A stretch of DNA of 64,000 nt from an uncultured delta proteobacterium. Its GTDB lineage: Bacteria > Desulfobacterota > Binatia > UBA9968. Position numbers and translations under genes: made by a program. The stretch covers positions 64,001 to 128,000 of the forward strand of contig CAVTUQ010000014.1 in assembly GCA_963737905.1 (NCBI GenBank), written 5' to 3'. How positions within the stretch are numbered: position 1 is the stretch's first letter; each line of letters opens with the position of its first letter. The notes beneath the pieces are model-generated. The model made no database searches, was not told the origin of the DNA, and saw only the letters and a list, made by a program, of their open reading frames with translations. This document shows positions 44,493 through 64,000 of the stretch, one piece after another.

Positions 44493-45878
44493 CCTAAGTC
44501 CTATGCTTTATTGCGCTCTCGGGGTTTTGCCCTGAACCCTTCTCAATCAAAAAGTTTCGCCAGTGCGTCAGTCTCCGCACGGCTAACGTCCATCGTCGTG
44601 ATGGCGGTCACGATCGCGCCGATCTTCGCAAACGAAGTTCGCCGCATCATCGATGCTGCCAGACCCCACGTACCGCGCCACTTGCGGGTAAGCACAGATG
44701 GGACGTGTGCGGGTCACCGCGCCGGCAGTAACCCTGGAGGCAATGATCTCCTCCGGGGCCGTGCCCTCCTCGACCCAATCCTCAAGCGCGCTCACCAGGT
44801 CCAACGTATTGGGCCCTCCAGGGTTGGCTCCGCCACAATGTCCCACATTGGGCAATAGGAAGAGTCGGACGAAATCCTCCGTTTTGTCCGGGTGACGCCG
44901 GTTACGATCGGCTTTGGTCCGAATCCTGTTGTAGTAATCAATGGTGTCCACCGGGTTTGGCAGTGGGTCGGATTCACCATGCCACACGATCATCTTGCCG
45001 CCACGCTTATTGAAGGCGGTCAGATCTGGGTTGTCCGCGTTGTGGATGAACTCTAGTGTCTCACCATCGAACTCCTTGTTGAGCGTATATTCGACGTCTC
45101 TGTCGAAAGTGAAGGTCGTGAAGTTATAGTTGGGATCTTCGAAGACCGTATTCTGAAAGAACGTGGTGTATTGTGGATTTGGCACGTCCCCGATCGATTG
45201 TCCCTGATCGAGTTCGCTCGTCCTCGGCACCCCTGGATAGACCTGTTCGCCCGTGGCCAGGTTCACCGGTGGCCCGGCGTACATACATTGGAGGGTTTCG
45301 ACCTGGGGCGCGGTGAGACACGTCGGGTTGTCGGCACCGGTGCAGAGCAAACTCTTGGGCTGGAACTTGCAGCGCCGCGGGTCGTCGACCTGGCCGTCCA
45401 CAAGACCGTCCAGGTGGTCGCAGGCCGCTATTACCGCCTTGAAGATTGCCGGCAGCTTGCCGACCGGGATGGCGTGCGCGCCGGTCGGATCCTCATGATT
45501 GCACTGCCAGGTCCAGACATGCCGCGATCGCAGTTGGAGCACCCGGTAGACAGGTGAGCCAGCGATGATGCCATCGTAGTCGTCGGGGTAGCGCTGGGCC
45601 TCCATGAACGCCTGCCGGCCGCCAGTCGAGCACCCGTTGAAGTAGGAACGCTCGGGATCGGCTCCGTAGAAGCCGTTGATGATCGCTTTGGACTTCAACG
45701 TGAGCTCGTGAATCGATCGATAGCCGTAGTCCTTGATCTGCTGCGCGTTGGTCCACCAGGGATCGCCAGGGGCGTTGGAGCTGTGCCCAGTGTCCGTAGA
45801 TGCTGTGGCATAATTGCGACTGAGCGCGGTTTGCATGTCCGAGAAGCTAATCGATCCGGCCAGGCCGCCGTTGCCGAC
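44493..45878. repeat. Near-identical duplication of 62615..64000 (continues past the window edge)
   Basis: Offset 18122 bp; about 10 substitutions noticed in 1386 bp. Confidence 0.95.
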
Positions 45879-46169
45879 TGCCTGGAATTTCCCGTTCCAG
45901 TCTACCGTCGGTATCCAGACTTCGAAGAGGATCGCCGGCGTTATGACCCCTCTCACCCGACAGATGGGAAGCGCAATATTGCCGACCGGGGACGGATTCG
46001 GGCCCGCTGGCAGGGACTCGACAAGCATGATGGTTGTTTCGGGTAAGTTCAGGGCCGCGAATGTCTCGAGGGTGCAGGGCGCAGTCGTAGCTGCGACCGG
46101 CTCCGGAGCGAGCGCGCCCGTTGCAATCATGGCGATGGAGAGAACAATGAGAAAGAAGCGGCGACTCAT
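44583..46169 (-). CDS. Secreted tannase/feruloyl-esterase-family alpha/beta hydrolase, copy A
   Basis: Signal peptide, WNGKF, GNGG, TDTGH, GCSTGG, WHGESD, VGHCGG, RPICAYP; GGAGG RBS. Confidence 0.92.
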   Translation of the reverse strand: MSRRFFLIVLSIAMIATGALAPEPVAATTAPCTLETFAALNLPETTIMLVESLPAGPNPSPVGNIALPICRVRGVITPAILFEVWIPTVDWNGKFQAVGNGGLAGSISFSDMQTALSRNYATASTDTGHSSNAPGDPWWTNAQQIKDYGYRSIHELTLKSKAIINGFYGADPERSYFNGCSTGGRQAFMEAQRYPDDYDGIIAGSPVYRVLQLRSRHVWTWQCNHEDPTGAHAIPVGKLPAIFKAVIAACDHLDGLVDGQVDDPRRCKFQPKSLLCTGADNPTCLTAPQVETLQCMYAGPPVNLATGEQVYPGVPRTSELDQGQSIGDVPNPQYTTFFQNTVFEDPNYNFTTFTFDRDVEYTLNKEFDGETLEFIHNADNPDLTAFNKRGGKMIVWHGESDPLPNPVDTIDYYNRIRTKADRNRRHPDKTEDFVRLFLLPNVGHCGGANPGGPNTLDLVSALEDWVEEGTAPEEIIASRVTAGAVTRTRPICAYPQVARYVGSGSIDDAANFVCEDRRDRDRHHDDGR

Positions 46170-50284: not shown

Positions 50285-51274
50285 CTATTTTCCCCTTCCC
50301 TTCCTCTCCTGCGCCAGCTGCTCAAGAAAAGATAAATCCAACAACTCGTTCACGTTGAGTTTCATCCCGGAGAGATTTTTGTCGTTGGCGATGACATTTT
50401 CCATCGCTTTAGCCGTAACGATAGGCAGTCCCGGCGTTACCCGGCTATAAACCATGCGGGTTTCCTCCAGCTCTTCGGTGTTGTTGGAGCGGTAGTATTC
50501 ACCAAGGTATTTGAGCACGCGGTCCTTGTTTTTATTGTCGCGATAAAAATCCATCCCATCGGCCAAACCGCGCATAAAATTCATCACCGTCTGCCGGTCG
50601 GATCGAATGAACGACCATGTTGTGACCGGTCCGGCGACAGTGTATTCGAAGTCTTCCTTTGAGAAGTCGAGAAAGATCGGATAATTCGCTTTACGCGCTT
50701 TCAGCGTAAATGGCGATTGCAGCAGGGTCGCTTGAACTTGCCCGGAAACGAGCGCCGTCCAACGGTCGCCCTGTCCACCAGCACCGACAATCTGCACATC
50801 TTTATCCGGCGTTAACCCCAAGCGCCGAAGCGCTAACCGGGCAATAAAATCCGTGCTGGAGCCCAATTGACTGACCGCAAGTCTCTTGCCCTTGAGATCT
50901 TCCGGCTGTTTGATCAATGGATGCGCCGCCAAAATGTAATCCAAGCGATTACCGACCGCGCCGATAAATTGTAACTCCTTCGCCCCCTGCGCCCACGCAG
51001 CCACCACCGTCGAAGCGCCCTGTAATTGCATCAGCAGATCACCGGAGAGCGCCGCCTGAATGCCCATCAACCCGCCGCGTATGTAGATCGGCTCGAGCTT
51101 TAACCTGTACTTTTCAAACGAACCCGCGCGATACGCAACCCAAAAGTAACTAGACGAACCACCAAGAGGATACCCGACCTTGAGTTCTCTCATCTTGGTA
51201 CTCTGGGCAAAAACAAAGTTCGGAAGAAGAACGAAAATGCAGCACATCAGATATAAAAGTCTTTTAATTTTCAT
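50285..51274 (-). CDS. ABC substrate-binding protein, NMT1/SsuA-like
   Basis: Signal peptide, DLKGKRLAVSQLGSSTD, ALVSGQVQA, LDLSFL. Confidence 0.88.
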   Translation of the reverse strand: MKIKRLLYLMCCIFVLLPNFVFAQSTKMRELKVGYPLGGSSSYFWVAYRAGSFEKYRLKLEPIYIRGGLMGIQAALSGDLLMQLQGASTVVAAWAQGAKELQFIGAVGNRLDYILAAHPLIKQPEDLKGKRLAVSQLGSSTDFIARLALRRLGLTPDKDVQIVGAGGQGDRWTALVSGQVQATLLQSPFTLKARKANYPIFLDFSKEDFEYTVAGPVTTWSFIRSDRQTVMNFMRGLADGMDFYRDNKNKDRVLKYLGEYYRSNNTEELEETRMVYSRVTPGLPIVTAKAMENVIANDKNLSGMKLNVNELLDLSFLEQLAQERKGRGK

Positions 51275-51805: not shown

Positions 51806-53657
51806 TTAGCGGTGGCCTCCCCGATCGCCCCCATCGTGCTTGCCGTCGTCCCTGTGATCTTCACGGTGGCCGGCGCCCTTCCCGATCCTCCCTACGCAGC
51901 GAAAGTTGGCGGCATCGTTGATATCACCGGAACCCTTATAACGGGCCTGTTTCGGATACGGGCAGAGCGGACGGCTGCGTGATTCCACTCCAAAGTAGCC
52001 GGGGTCGCTCGCCGTTGCTACAACGCTATCCGGCGCGACGCCGTTTTCTACCCAATTGACAACCTCTGGAAACATCTCGAAGTCATCCGTTGAAGGCCCA
52101 CCACTACAGTGATTCATGCCCGGCACCACAAACATTCTTGCAAATTTGGCGACATTACCGCTCTCCTTGGCATTCACATCGTTGTACCAGTCAATTGTTG
52201 CGTTAACTGAAAACGCGCCGTCCGCTCCACCTTGGTAAACGATCAATTTGCCGCCGTGAGCCTTAAACCCAGACAGGTCGGTGGAGTCGATTGATCCCAG
52301 ATCAGCCGCCGACACCGTATATATCCCCGCTGTTTCGTTTACCCTCTCAAGAAAGGTATCAAAATCGAAACTTAGCTGGAACGGAACACAGTCGTTGGCG
52401 GTAACAAAAGGCAGCACCGGATAGGCAGTATACCTAAGCGCGGATGATGCACAGCTCCTAGTTACCCTCTGGGCATTGTTGGTAGTCGCGTTAAAGGAAC
52501 GAAGCACCCAAGAGCGCCAGCCTTGGTTAAAGGTCGAACCTGACTGACCACCGATACCCGGATCCCACGGCCAGTCGGAATACAGCTGCGTTCCTTGAGA
52601 GTCCTTCATCCCAGCCATCACGGTCTGGAGCGCCTCAACCTGATTCACCGCTAGGCAACTGCTGGTTTTCGCTTCCGTGCACGTCAGCGCTGCCAATTCG
52701 GTGTTCACCAATTGTGACGTACATGCCGGCATGTTGTCGACAATACCGTCTTCAAGCCCATCCAGCCTGTCGCACGCCGCTAAAACGGCATTCCTTATCA
52801 ATAGCAGATCCTGGTCGGTGTAGGTCTTGTTGATAAGCGGGTTGCCGGCGGAGTCAAAACTCGTCGCAATCTTAGCGAACACTTGTGTGGCATAAGCGCC
52901 ATTAGCCGACGAGAATGCCGCAGAATCCGGGATCGCCTGTGACGATGCCGTCGAAATGTTCGGAAACGTCTGCGCCATCAACATCCCCTCCGCCCCACCT
53001 TCGGAACACCGACAAAATAGGAAAATTTGGGCTTCTTTCCATAATAGAGGTAAAACGAACTCTTTACCCACTCGAACGGTCTGGTCATAAGAGTTGTAAG
53101 AGAAATCGATTCTGCCTGTGGATCGATGGAGAATACGTTAGTCCGCCTACATTGGGATCGTTTTGGTCGCACTATCATGTCCGGAATCCGTCCGATCGTG
53201 ACGAAGCCTTGCGGCAAAACACTCGTCGGATCTACAACGGTACCGTTCTCCGCCGCCACCGCCCATGTAGAATCGCTCGTTCCACGCGGTGGGCATGCGG
53301 ACACGGAACTTGATAGCGTAAATCTGTCCACCCACACCTACGCGCTCGTTGATCTTGCCATCGATAAGGCAATGCTCTGGCAGACTCTGGGTAGCCGCGG
53401 TAAGGACGCCGACGTGATAACGACCTTATTTATCGTGAGGCTGGTAAACGCGCTAAGGGAACTGCAGCCGATAATCGGAGTTCGGTAGCGTGTGAGTCTC
53501 TGGAGGTGCCCCGCGATGATCGTCGGATCGCCCTCATTCGCTCCACCGCTTTGAGCAGTACCAGGGACTCTCCATCATGATAATGGCCGCGGCAAGAAAC
53601 CCGAGTAGTCTCACTTGAGTAGAGAAATAGTCACGGTGATCTCCCCCTTGTTTTCAT
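51806..53657 (-). CDS. MHETase-like tannase-family hydrolase; 5' third broken by roughly ten indels (errors or decay)
   Basis: Reconstructed LPEHC, YAIKFRVRMPTAWN, DPQARID.SYNSYDQ, GCSEGGREG, PLINK, NQGWRSW, NNAQRV, DGAFS, VPGMNHCSGGP, PGYFGV..RPLCPYP; ATG 53657 with GGAGGA RBS. Confidence 0.8.
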
Positions 53658-53881
53658 ATTCCTCCTTTTCATTTGTTATCCGAGAGCATCTCAGCTTTTT
53701 GTCAGTAGAACGATCGTCAATTTTGCTCCGCTCTCCTCATTTTTTTCCGTCGTTGCGTATATCCTGCTACAGTAAATGAATCTTCTGTCCACTACATTTT
53801 TACTTAACTTTATCTTTTGGATTGTTCCTATTCCTGCGTTTGGGTATAGTCTCCGTCGATTGATCCGGGGACTAGGACATA

Positions 53882-54740
<859 letters not shown>

Positions 54741-55158
54741 ACGTTGCCTGCAGGACTCTCCTCAAGGCGATATGATGGTCCGGGCGGAAGAACTCCGGGT
54801 CGAGCCAAGGCAATTCATCGATTTCACAACATTAAGATGAAATAAACCCGAATTCCGCAGTAGAAACAATTTAAGGCGGTGCATTGACGGGAGAATGAGG
54901 CGATAAGAGAGGTATCGGAGTCACTATCTTTTGGGATGTGTGTGTGTTTGTTCGTTTAGATTCCATTCCAACTGCGCCGCAATCGGCAGTCCCTCCGCAA
55001 GCGGCGCAAAAATTCCTGGAGCCTTGGAGTCTTGCTTCTTGCAATCAATCCTCGCATAGGCTTTCGCTCTCCGCAGGCAACGGGAGTCTTGGAAATCAGC
55101 GCTCGGGATAAGGCTTGTGGTCTTCATTATTCCAAGACTGGCGACGATCTTTTTAATC

Positions 55159-55275
55159 CGATCTTTGAAGTTCATCTCCTTTCCATCTTAGACTCTACGA
55201 TCCGGCATTTCCAACTCACGGTTACATAACCGTTGGTTCCGAAATATTCCTCTATCTCCGGCAAAGTTCGATCGC
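55159..55275 (-). mobile_element. Fragment of a second RAYT family (C-terminal DnaA-like HTH); direct repeat of 57309..57425
   Basis: RTLPEIEEYFGTNGYVTVSWKCR; 117-bp copies about 90% identical. Confidence 0.55.
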
Positions 55276-55369
55276 GAGACAGTCCGGCATCCACGGCATT
55301 GGAAATGGAGTATCTCCGTTGCCACGGCGTGCTTGTAAACTCTCACGGTTTTCACCTTGATGAAATACT

Positions 55370-55747
55370 CAGTCATTTGGTCAGCGGAAGGCAACGCCCA
55401 TGAAAAATATTCCGAGTTTGTTCAGCCGGAATCGCACCCCTTCAATCTTGGACAGTCTTCAGGCCCAGAGTCTCTTGGGCCTCGAAGGTTTTGCGGAGGG
55501 GCTCCGACACCTGGTCTCGGAAAAACAACAGATTCGAACGGTACCGAAGGGCAACGATTCGTAGGAATCTGACTTGGAGAAGCTATTTTCACAGAGCCCA
55601 GGCAAAGCATCCAGGGATCGGCTCATCGCCCAAGCTGTTACAGGCACGGCTATAGCCAAATGGAGTTGCAACCTTCCTGCGCCTCCACTATTCGACAATC
55701 AGCCGAATCCTCGCCGCCAACAGAAGCGCAAATCTAAAGACCTGACC
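55370..55747 (+). mobile_element. 3' fragment of a third RAYT-type transposase ending in KT*-CC (aagacctgacc)
   Basis: QSLLG.EGF, QRFVG, LEKLF, HGYSQ, LHYSTISRIL...LKT* across frameshifts. Confidence 0.55.
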
Positions 55748-56047
55748 TGTGTCCCTGTATCTCGATTAAACTAATCTCATATTCCAAGATCCGACCCCTA
55801 GCACCCAAACGTTACTTCTGCTCGATCTGCTTCCGATCACGTCCACCTGCCAGCGCCAGTTGACACAACGTCACCTCATTGGATAATGTCCGTTTCAAAT
55901 CGGGGGTAGGAGAACCTGCCTGCCTTCTCTGATGTTGCTTTGGGCTCTCGAACGCGATCTCGCATGTGTGGTCGCAGGCATTTTTAAATCTTCGTTGGCT
56001 GACCCCCAAAAAGCGAGTTCCTATCATTCAGCGTGTAGAAGCGAGAC

Positions 56048-57036
56048 ATGGCCGCCATCTATTTCCACGGCGAGTTCTCATTAGGAGGGGAGGGCCTTCA
56101 GATCCTCGACGAGTTGCGCAAGCGTTTCGGGCGGGACACGTTGACGACTCGACTCGACCGGCGAGGACCACGAGTCTCGATGATGAGTGATGCCATTGCG
56201 TCCGTTGTGGCGGCGATCGTCTACATCATCGAGCCGGGAACTAAAAAGAAGGACCTCGAATCCGTGTTGCGCCCCGAGCGCACGCGTCCGCTAACGGCCT
56301 CAGAGATCATTAATAGCGATTTCCGTCCGGGCGATTTAGATCCGGCCAACCTCCCTTACTTGCTGGATCGCGATCACATCCTGGACCTCGAGATCCCTGT
56401 TATTGCAGTGCTTGTTGGCGGCGTGAACTCGAATGTCTTGCCTATCTACAAGCGCATCACGCCAATCACCCTTACTGAGAAATCTTGGGCGCATAGGGTA
56501 GCGAGCGTCGTGTCGGCGCTTGAGATGCTCGTGAGCGTCCCGCAGCTTCGCGGGACTTCGAACGACTCCTTGGCAACACTGCTCGAGAGGCGCAAGCCCG
56601 AGCCCGTCAAGCCCGACAAACCCCGCGCCGCGCACGAAGTGTTCGTCAGCTACGCCTTCAAGGACCAGGCGTTCGCTGACGCAATGGTGCGCGCCCTCGA
56701 GGAGAAAGGCATCCCCTGCTGGATCGCATCGCGAGACGTGCCGAAGGCGAGTCCTACGCGAAGCGAATTCCGGGCGCGATTCGCTCAAGCCGGCTAATCG
56801 TCGTGGTGGTCTCCGAGCACTCGAACCCATCGGAGGACGTGCTCAGCGAGGTCACACTCGCGAAGAACGCGAACGTGCCGAGGCTGCCGCTACTGATCGA
56901 TAATTCACCTCTCGACGACGGGCTCGCATACTTCTTCAGCCACCCCGTTCGTCTGTACGCGGCGGGCATGGGGCGCGCCGCCGCCATCGTCGCGCTCGTG
57001 GAGGAGGTGAAGCGCCACCTGCGACGGAATTTTTGA
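56048..57036 (+). CDS. TIR-domain protein (degenerate TIR-like N-domain plus canonical TIR), 1-nt deletion near 56746
   Basis: VFVSY..KD, CWIASRDV, then (after adding one G) GESYAKRI..AI..SRLIVVVVSEHSNPSEDVLSEV, PLLID. Confidence 0.8.
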
Positions 57037-62704: not shown

Positions 62705-64000
62705 CTAGCGTCCATCGTCGTGATGGCGGTCACGATCGCGTCGATCTTCGCAAACGAAGTTCGCCGCATCATCGATGCTGCCAGACCCCACGTACCGCGC
62801 CACTTGCGGGTAAGCACAGATGGGACGTGTGCGGCTCACCGCGCCGGCAGTAACCCTGGAGGCAATGATCTCCTCCGGGGCCGTGCCCTCCTCGACCCAA
62901 TCCTCAAGCGCGCTCACCAGGTCCAACGTATTGGGCCCTCCAGGGTTGGCTCCGCCACAATGTCCCACATTGGGCAATAGGAAGAGTCGGACGAAATCCT
63001 CCGTTTTGTCCGGGTGACGCCGGTTACGATCGGCTTTGGTCCGAATCCTGTTGTAGTAATCAATGGTGTCCACCGGGTTTGGCAGTGGGTCGGATTCACC
63101 ATGCCACACGATCATCTTGCCGCCACGCTTATTGAAGGCGGTCAGATCTGGGTTGTCCGCGTTGTGGATGAACTCTAGTGTCTCACCATCGAACTCCTTG
63201 TTGAGCGTATATTCGACGTCTCTGTCGAAAGTGAAGGTCGTGAAGTTATAGTTGGGATCTTCGAAGACCGTATTCTGAAAGAACGTGGTGTATTGTGGAT
63301 TTGGCACGTCCCCGATCGATTGTCCCTGATCGAGTTCGCTCGTCCTCGGCACCCCTGGATAGACCTGTTCGCCCGTGGCCAGGTTCACCGGTGGCCCGGC
63401 GTACATACACTGGAGGGTTTCGACCTGGGGCGCGGTGAGACACGTCGGGTTGTCGGCACCGGTGCAGAGCAAACTCTTGGGCTGGAACTTGCAGCGCCGC
63501 GGGTCGTCGACCTGGCCGTCCACAAGACCGTCCAGGTGGTCGCAGGCCGCTATTACCGCCTTGAAGATTGCCGGCAGCTTGCCGACTGGGATGGCGTGCG
63601 CGCCGGTCGGATCCTCATGATTGCACTGCCAGGTCCAGACATGCCGCGATCGCAGTTGGAGCACCCGGTAGACAGGTGAGCCAGCGATGATGCCATCGTA
63701 GTCGTCGGGGTAGCGCTGGGCCTCCATGAACGCCTGCCGGCCGCCAGTCGAGCACCCGTTGAAGTAGGAACGCTCGGGATCGGCTCCGTAGAAGCCGTTG
63801 ATGATCGCTTTGGACTTCAACGTGAGCTCGTGAATCGATCGATAGCCGTAGTCTTTGATCTGCTGCGCGTTGGTCCACCAGGGATCGCCAGGGGCGTTGG
63901 AGCTGTGCCCAGTGTCCGTAGATGCTGTGGCATAATTGCGACTGAGCGCGGTTTGCATGTCCGAGAAGCTGATCGATCCGGCCAGGCCGCCGTTGCCGAC
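62705..64000 (-). CDS. Tannase/feruloyl-esterase-family hydrolase, copy B (5' end outside window)
   Basis: Identical in protein to 44583..46169 over the visible part except one T->S. Confidence 0.92.
   Translation of the reverse strand, partial: VGNGGLAGSISFSDMQTALSRNYATASTDTGHSSNAPGDPWWTNAQQIKDYGYRSIHELTLKSKAIINGFYGADPERSYFNGCSTGGRQAFMEAQRYPDDYDGIIAGSPVYRVLQLRSRHVWTWQCNHEDPTGAHAIPVGKLPAIFKAVIAACDHLDGLVDGQVDDPRRCKFQPKSLLCTGADNPTCLTAPQVETLQCMYAGPPVNLATGEQVYPGVPRTSELDQGQSIGDVPNPQYTTFFQNTVFEDPNYNFTTFTFDRDVEYTLNKEFDGETLEFIHNADNPDLTAFNKRGGKMIVWHGESDPLPNPVDTIDYYNRIRTKADRNRRHPDKTEDFVRLFLLPNVGHCGGANPGGPNTLDLVSALEDWVEEGTAPEEIIASRVTAGAVSRTRPICAYPQVARYVGSGSIDDAANFVCEDRRDRDRHHDDGR

Follow-up and report, generated by a model that had tools for sequence, protein, structure and literature searches.

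A 64,000-nucleotide (nt) stretch of DNA from an uncultured delta proteobacterium (contig CAVTUQ010000014.1 of assembly GCA_963737905.1, positions 64,001 to 128,000; hereafter the window) encodes on its minus strand a protein which, judged by its sequence, adds a new member to the established tannase-family branch that contains MHETase, the hydrolase of mono(2-hydroxyethyl) terephthalate (MHET) from Ideonella/Piscinibacter sakaiensis (IsMHETase; PDB 6QZ2/6QG9; EC 3.1.1.102). We consider it likely that the gene encodes a true secreted serine esterase, probably a functional one, of this MHETase-containing subfamily and that the apparent breaks in its reading frame are an assembly artefact. The substrate class of the enzyme, its secretion, its regulation, and the technical origin of the insertions and deletions (indels) are what we infer from the comparisons described below.

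The only database product for the gene is a 390-amino acid (aa) protein (P0001), as automated gene calling shortens the gene; annotation had been predicted to miss it, and did so by truncation. A frameshift-aware alignment to the intact ortholog P0002 restores a 594-residue reading with zero stop codons, which shares 90% identity with P0002 across 531 columns. Read through in this manner, the product would comprise about 595 aa, with a signal-peptide-like N-terminus and a C-terminal tail rich in His, Gly, Arg, and Asp. The tail (51806-51890; ~28 residues) follows the last conserved Cys and is kept in P0002-P0006, while that of P0007 is different and P0008 is tailless, carrying an N-terminal DUF6351 domain instead. 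The 421-aa open part of the gene (51806-53071) matches the Pfam tannase/feruloyl esterase family PF07519 at 236 bits (cut-off 29.8), and the match on the read-through reaches 280.8 bits; an NCBIfam search of P0002 returned no family at E 1e-5. When the same open part was compared with the PDB using phmmer, the top six matches were all MHETase sequences (E 7e-107 to 1e-105), followed in seventh place by the fungal feruloyl esterase B, FaeB (E 1.7e-20), and MHETase was also the top PDB match of P0002 (E 1e-163 over residues 55-572). The alignment to MHETase runs unbroken through the large lid insertion, the two mature proteins being collinear from end to end, the lid of ~240 residues included.

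The sequence motifs on which the original prediction was based are all present in minus-strand frames of the gene, at agreeing coordinates and collinear with I. sakaiensis MHETase. One of them, the nucleophile box, had been misread as GCSEGGREG; it is actually GCSEGGAEG, with Ala at the corresponding position of every close ortholog too. GCSEGG, GADGAFS, and MNHCSGG align to the catalytic triad, the Cys beside the Ser (C224-S225) and the Cys beside the His (H528-C529) are both retained, and an active-site disulfide is accordingly predicted for the window esterase. All 10 conserved family cysteines, which form five disulfides, are found in the window read-through as well as in 10/10 members of its clade. 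The lid had also been said to set this protein apart from the other tannases of the window, which agrees with our comparison, since the segment NQGWRSW...NNAQR is not in any of the three paralogs.

The frame-breaking indels are distributed very unevenly. A nucleotide alignment with the ortholog L013 provides a finer indel map than the protein-guided alignment, which places 12 frame changes from 52922 to 53510. According to this map, 11 one-base deletions, 1 two-base deletion, and 1 one-base insertion lie within 52918-53485, deletions making up 12 of the 13 frame-breaking indels, and a one-base deletion is located at about 53011, just upstream of the catalytic Ser codon. The region 51890-52917 has no frame-breaking indel and only two 3-nt length differences. 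All 13 indels thus fall within 573 nt (52918-53490) of the 1601 nt compared, with 0 in the other 1028 nt (binomial p 1.6e-6), and the earlier claim that they gather toward a poly-T tract is thereby upheld. Between 53514 and 53634 there are more breaks plus 46+16 extra bases relative to L013, and these 62 nt, at 53514-53571, have no copy elsewhere in the genome. The broken and intact parts share 88-91% and 79-88% of their nucleotides with L013, respectively; nonsynonymous divergence (dN) is 0.092 and 0.101 in the same two parts, and synonymous divergence (dS) 0.23 and 0.51.

The damage extends into the adjacent gene as well. A LysR-family regulator gene is transcribed divergently from the esterase, as had been proposed, and the divergent pair is intact in L101 and L124. 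Positions 53882-54268 of the window correspond to LysR nt 1-399 with 12 gaps (387 window nt), whereas 54704-54842 align to LysR nt 855-994 (1 gap, 95% identity), and the final 37 nt of the window LysR gene are intact. Between these segments lies a run of T and then A (Table 1), whose T424 tract is the sole T or A run of at least 15 nt in the 6.7 Mb genome. The remaining long homopolymers of the genome are two G runs of 23 and 57 nt (C26:102946-103041).

Further evidence comes from Logan contigs of four runs (X1, X2, X4, and X5), which represent independent metagenomes and are 90-97% alike to the window; relatives were found in soil and rhizosphere metagenomes. The gaps between related contigs and the window in 52868-53480 amount to 12 for X1 record 7, 7 and 6 for X4 records 20 and 21, and 14 for X5 record 23. 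Among the 12 of 38 indel rows displayed, the related contigs have extra letters behind 53142, 53247, 53249, and 53407, each in two to four runs, and X2 record 16 has 9 gaps in 54085-54231, which is inside the LysR gene. Over 51807-52889, 11 of the 14 listed records are gap-free, and X2 record 13 has 2 gaps that constitute a paired shift.

Given that the indels are biased toward deletions, sharply bounded, spread across two genes, and free of any substitution excess, and that the patch ends in a length-preserving homopolymer while related strains lack the indels, the damage very probably represents an uncorrected, deletion-prone consensus patch of ~1.8 kb (about 52918-54703) rather than gene decay. 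The technical origin of the frameshifts that had been suspected is thus supported by the spread of the indels, the damage to LysR, and the related contigs. The patch contains about 2-3% indels. Its right-hand limit is approximate, since no open frame of more than 89 codons occurs in 54704-56100 and the comparator sequence reached 54842 only. Programmed frameshifting was also considered and set aside, because the 13 breaks have no common motif and LysR is hit as well. The patch with its homopolymer filler would therefore have produced two apparent pseudogenes and one truncated gene call in place of genes that are not decaying.

The protein had been called close to MHETase, and a specific relation to that enzyme had been implied; neither part of this description found support. 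The intact part of the window protein is 50% (170/343) and P0002 51% (261/514) identical to IsMHETase, which is the common level for the family; in the extracts of Knott et al. 2020 (PMC7568301) used here, MHETase is <53% identical to most of 6,671 family sequences. A Piscinibacter sp. metagenome-assembled genome (MAG; L010, 7800-9548) encodes a protein with the very sequence of the crystallised IsMHETase (100% identity, 1340 bits), and a direct comparison with MHETase is therefore possible. Another protein, from the Xenophilus aerolatus chromosome (L009, 7638-9548), is 99% identical to IsMHETase, has Gly at position 131, and is encoded beside a Rieske alpha/beta pair. Of the 247 collected matches to P0002, 133 score above the 548 bits of MHETase, a count that includes P0002 itself, its clade, and some duplicates. 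Scored against MHETase (PDB), proteins of a Hydrogenophaga MAG (L031), Azohydromonas (L025), and Ramlibacter (L005) reach 587, 586, and 552 bits, respectively; P0002, at 548-549 bits, is thus no nearer to MHETase than these three Burkholderiales homologs.

Two trees, one built with FastTree from 129 rows and the other a quick IQ-TREE run on 47 rows (LG+C20+F+G4), both unite the window read-through with P0002-P0009, L013, and L101 in a clade with full support. This clade is nested in a group with Paraburkholderia, Variovorax, Ramlibacter, Azohydromonas, and Hydrogenophaga proteins (Shimodaira-Hasegawa-like approximate likelihood ratio test support 98), from which the MHETase clade (L010, L009, and L037) is excluded. 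Forcing a joint clade with MHETase changed the log-likelihood by -26.5 units (approximately unbiased test, p 0.0027; the group tested was chosen with the tree already in view). Outside the clade, the closest relatives with names are uncharacterised Burkholderiales proteins annotated as "tannase/feruloyl esterase family alpha/beta hydrolases" (such as Paraburkholderia caledonica P0018, Variovorax P0052, and Azohydromonas L025), which share 52-57% identity with P0002 at 666-690 bits, as opposed to 548 for MHETase, and belong to the same supported tree clade. Unlike the window clade, they mostly have Lys411, Trp398, and Leu254 and lack the Cys377/Cys398 pair described below.

The substrate pocket presents a similarly mixed picture. 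With 6qz2_A, which carries native MHETase numbering, as the reference for equivalences, the window protein keeps the triad S225, D492, and H528 together with W397, R411, and F495, as well as E226, S419, A494, and the Gln of the Q410-R411 pair. It differs by having V for W398, R for L254, R for G414, S for F415, and C for S416, although position 416 is Cys by pairwise alignment and a gap by MAFFT; Gly in place of S131 is deduced via the intact ortholog P0002 (83-84% identical). The window protein also departs from IsMHETase in lacking 9 residues after position 135 and in having the C-terminal tail and an additional Cys pair specific to its clade; IsMHETase is not in a sister clade, and there are no tph genes next to the window gene. 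According to the extracts of Palm et al. 2019 (PMC6461665) consulted, the ring of MHET is clasped by F415, L254, and W397 of the lid and by F495, G132, and A494 of the core, and its carboxylate is bound by R411, held by S416, S419, and the G258 backbone. The window clade keeps 3/3 core residues of this clasp and 1/3 of those in the lid (W397 only). The prediction that the terephthalate-binding lid is retained therefore stands in part: the Arg in question does align to R411 in the printed alignment, and W397 and S419 are kept as well, whereas two of the three ring-clasping lid residues (F415 and L254) are changed and position 131 is Gly.

A residue survey of 213 family members, including the 10-member window clade, indicates which of these features are peculiar to the clade. 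L254 is replaced by Arg and F415 by Ser in 10/10 clade members, while position 131 is Gly in 10/10 of them and in 208/213 of the family. At position 411, the clade has Arg in 6/10 and Lys in 4/10 members, as compared with Lys in 123, Asn in 40, Ile in 17, and Arg in 9 of the 213, such that the clade accounts for 6 of the 9 arginines. Gln410 occurs in 13/213, 10 of them from the clade, and the MHETase clade has Gln410 also; Arg at the equivalent of position 414 occurs in 11/213, again with 10 from the clade. A Cys pair at P0002 positions 377/398 is present in 10/10 clade members and 0/203 others, and Cys377/Cys398 is a possible sixth disulfide located in the lid.

Full-length relatives at 76-84% identity are represented in a large protein database by P0002-P0009 (585-654 aa), with fragments of closer relatives lower in the list (P0010, P0012, P0022, and P0101); from P0011 onward, hundreds of proteins follow at 46-54% identity, including those of Paraburkholderia and Variovorax, and 3844 of 8000 scored candidates reach E <= 1e-20. 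The source annotations of the relatives read "feruloyl esterase" and are automatic labels. Among species-representative genomes, the sole close ortholog is L013 (84% identity, unbroken 632-aa frame), from a MAG labelled "uncultured delta proteobacterium". Intact orthologs thus comprise the 632-aa open frame in G002 plus P0002-P0009. The host of the window gene is a Binatia-type bacterium far from Burkholderiales, because its RpoB is up to 98% identical to that of Candidatus Binatia and 58% identical to that of Azohydromonas; this part of the original prediction was correct. Database RpoB matches at 96-98% that carry an organism name are 3/3 "Candidatus Binatia bacterium", those at 93% are labelled Binatia, Alphaproteobacteria, Acidoferrales, and Deltaproteobacteria, one each, and RpoB identity to the L013 genome is 92%. 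A homolog at E <= 1e-60 was found in 0/40 sampled relatives of the host (sharing its genus in 2 cases, its family in 22, and its order in 16; completeness 71-100%), and the esterase gene is therefore accessory in this lineage. Its nesting among Burkholderiales sequences and its patchy occurrence in Binatia suggest horizontal acquisition, with transfer conceivable in either direction. Our literature search found no paper linking Binatota/Binatia with MHETase or tannase, which reflects little study and is not a surprise.

Several observations weigh against a functional esterase of this kind that was broken only in assembly. The dN/dS ratio relative to L013 is 0.40 in the broken part versus 0.20 in the intact part. 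The best public run contains at most 17% of the sampled window words, meaning that the frame check rests on related strains, and in the supposedly intact part X4 record 17 (51807-52672) has 15 gaps and X5 record 22 has 3, although the gaps of the exceptional records X2 13, X5 22, and X4 17 may lie in the variable C-terminal tail. F415, L254, and S131 differ from MHETase, of which Ser131 and Phe415 are said to have specifically evolved for MHET, and in the extracts of the same study the MHETase single mutants S131G and F415S retain about 3% efficiency and greatly reduced activity, respectively (Knott et al. 2020, PMC7568301). Residue equivalences at 416-424 vary between pairwise and multiple alignments, and the neighbouring genes give no clear pathway. 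One could suppose that the frameshifts are real and that the gene is a decaying pseudogene in the window organism, since there are at least 13 frame breaks in the sequence as given, the lack of an ortholog in the 40 sampled relatives implies a dispensable gene, and dN/dS is elevated in the broken part. However, the ratio is higher there because dS is lower and not because dN is higher. Furthermore, the indels end abruptly at 52918, hit LysR too, and end in a 437-nt homopolymer replacing about equal length, there is no excess of substitutions, and the related contigs from 4 runs do not have the indels. Thirteen indels with almost no accompanying substitutions fit neutral decay poorly, and we regard a pseudogene as highly improbable.

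As for its substrate, the protein could be a dedicated hydrolase of terephthalate monoesters, i.e. MHET or intermediates of the polyester PBAT, and as such the counterpart of IsMHETase in an uncultured soil lineage. The rare Gln410-Arg411 pair common to both proteins would favor this, as would the retention of E226, W397, S419, A494, and F495 and a protocatechuate 3,4-cleavage cluster (PcaD-PcaH-PcaG-PcaB) on contig C17 of the genome, all above NCBIfam cut-offs. In addition, homologs of 47-73% identity have been described to hydrolyse MHET (extracts of PMC7568301 and PMC8351946). Two MHETase homologs, from Hydrogenophaga sp. PML113 and Comamonas thiooxydans, resemble the window protein in having Gly131 and, for the Hydrogenophaga enzyme, Ser415; as excerpted from PMC7568301, they hydrolyse MHET 10- to 20-fold less efficiently, the Hydrogenophaga homolog (Gly131, Ser415) having a kcat of 3.8 per s, a Km of 41 uM, and an about 20-fold lower efficiency. 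Both share 73-81% identity with MHETase and match it at all other positions within 6 A of the ligand (extracts of PMC7568301), whereas the pocket of the window protein has several further differences. Mle046, a marine, alphaproteobacterial, plasmid-borne, and PBAT-induced enzyme that we compared by description only, is, like the window protein, a distant family member from outside Burkholderiales with Gly131 (46.9% identical to MHETase), and since it hydrolyses both MHET, with a Km of 2.6 mM, and Bte, both activities are possible at a divergence like that of the window protein (extracts of PMC8351946). Despite this, the window protein is only 50-51% identical and not sister to the MHETase clade, has Gly131, Ser415, and Arg254, and belongs to a clade in which 4/10 members have Lys at 411. 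Its neighbours are the LysR gene and a SsuA/NMT1-type binding protein gene rather than tph genes. The suggested genome search for tph and pca genes is answered in part only by the pca cluster, as no aromatic-ring catabolic gene occurs in the 64-kb window and no terephthalate-dioxygenase-like gene is nearby; the genome has two Rieske oxygenase alpha/beta pairs of unassigned specificity, and its closest counterpart of the Rieske alpha subunit encoded next to the L009 MHETase ortholog, presumably TphA2, is 28% identical. A dedicated hydrolase is therefore quite unlikely. Alternatively, the enzyme might cleave esters of plant origin as a generic feruloyl, hydroxycinnamoyl, or tannin esterase, with no special role for the Arg. 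Consistent with this are the Pfam match to the tannase/feruloyl esterase family, the "feruloyl esterase" annotations of the relatives and their occurrence in soil and rhizosphere metagenomes, the three further tannase paralogs within 20 kb, and the placement of MHETase itself among proteobacterial feruloyl esterases in the extracts of Knott et al. (PMC7568301). However, those annotations are automatic, MHETase is described as inactive on coumarate, caffeate, and chlorogenate esters in the extracts of Palm et al. (PMC6461665), position 411 is basic throughout the clade, and the clade-specific pocket arginines at 254 and 414 point to an anionic substrate, making a generic esterase unlikely.

Based upon these features, several proposals can be made regarding how the tannase-family esterase of the window would function. 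By homology, its Ser-His-Asp triad, flanked by the Cys-Cys disulfide, would hydrolyse an ester whose aromatic acyl group is held by the large lid domain, and the Arg at the R411 position would bind a distal anionic group of the substrate. As a basic residue at this position would bind an anion, the native substrate is most likely a monoester of an aromatic acid with a free carboxylate or other anion, and MHET would be a side substrate at best. The published mutants and homologs render a weak side activity plausible, and by analogy with them the chances that the window enzyme would detectably hydrolyse MHET are about even; a dedicated MHET role is very unlikely. Expression would presumably be controlled by the divergent LysR, and the enzyme may be paired with the NMT1/SsuA-type binding protein. 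It is also conceivable, albeit doubtful, that following transfer from Burkholderiales the Binatia clade became a specificity group of its own, with a Gln-Arg clamp, Arg254 and Arg414, and a sixth disulfide that would stiffen a lid loop.

Table 1. Coordinates of the esterase gene, its key codons, and adjoining features in the window
Feature	Position	Strand	Basis
MHETase-like tannase-family serine esterase, whole gene (predicted)	51806..53657	-	ATG 53655-53657, stop 51806-51808
Esterase, C-terminal open frame: most of lid domain, catalytic Asp and His, tail	51806..52917	-	Alignment to L013
Esterase, N-terminal third with frame-breaking indels	52918..53657	-	Alignments to L013 (nucleotide) and P0002 (protein-guided), contigs of 4 runs
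Catalytic Ser codon (= MHETase S225), box GCSEGGAEG	53003..53005	-	Direct reading and alignments
Arg codon aligned to MHETase R411 (carboxylate-binding residue)	52466..52468	-	Direct reading and alignments
Catalytic Asp codon (= D492) within GGADGAFS	52220..52222	-	Direct reading and alignment
Catalytic His codon (= H528) within PGMNHCSGGP	52109..52111	-	Direct reading and alignment
NMT1/SsuA-like periplasmic solute-binding protein gene, downstream	50285..51274	-	Pfam NMT1; NCBIfam SsuA_fam 60 bits, below cut-off
Divergent LysR-family regulator gene	53882..54740	+	HTH_1 in 60-aa open reading frame; alignment to intact 296-aa LysR of L124, L101
T424 then A13, artificial filler (437 nt)	54266..54702		Replaces LysR nt 400-854 (455 nt)

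Among the surrounding genes, the binding-protein gene occupies the same position in L013 (79% nucleotide identity). The three additional tannase paralogs are 30-33% identical to P0002, and two of them, at 44583-46169 (-) and 62705-64000 (-, continuing past the window end), are nearly identical to each other, with end branches of 0.02 and overlapping short open reading frames (ORFs) that are alike; located about 18 kb apart, they reflect recent duplication or else an assembly segment that was repeated. In three related loci (L013:9759-12646, L101:5407-8296, and L102:43-3012), the MHETase-like gene is adjoined by a tandem paralogous pair encoding proteins of about 445-510 aa with signal peptides and no Pfam or NCBIfam match. 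In the window genome, such a pair is found just past the window, beside the fourth tannase paralog (G000:C14:128572-131638, i.e. L130:572-3638; 48-53% identity), and its recurrence suggests that it may be an unnamed family tied functionally to tannase-type esterases. To the right of the ORF-free region, a 249-aa ORF (56048-56797, +) matches the start of TIR_2 (PF13676, 30.6 bits) with its last 45 residues. The genome also has 12 LigB-family dioxygenase and 34 TctC/Bug-family binding-protein matches above cut-off, an unusually large set for the uptake and cleavage of aromatics or carboxylates in this lineage.

The placement of the window gene does not change what is known of MHETase evolution, as the family is large and homologs of ~50% identity are common in soil Burkholderiales and Acidobacteriota. 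MHETase-like enzymes are wanted for polyester recycling, and enzyme screens could reasonably include a homolog of an uncultured phylum whose placement is correct; the intact orthologs P0002 and L013 are better starting points for this than the broken window copy. Should the Binatia clade indeed have a specificity of its own, it would be tuned to aromatic esters with >1 negative charge or to terephthalate-type monoesters, and the uncultured soil phylum would thereby gain a new aromatic-dicarboxylate ester hydrolase.

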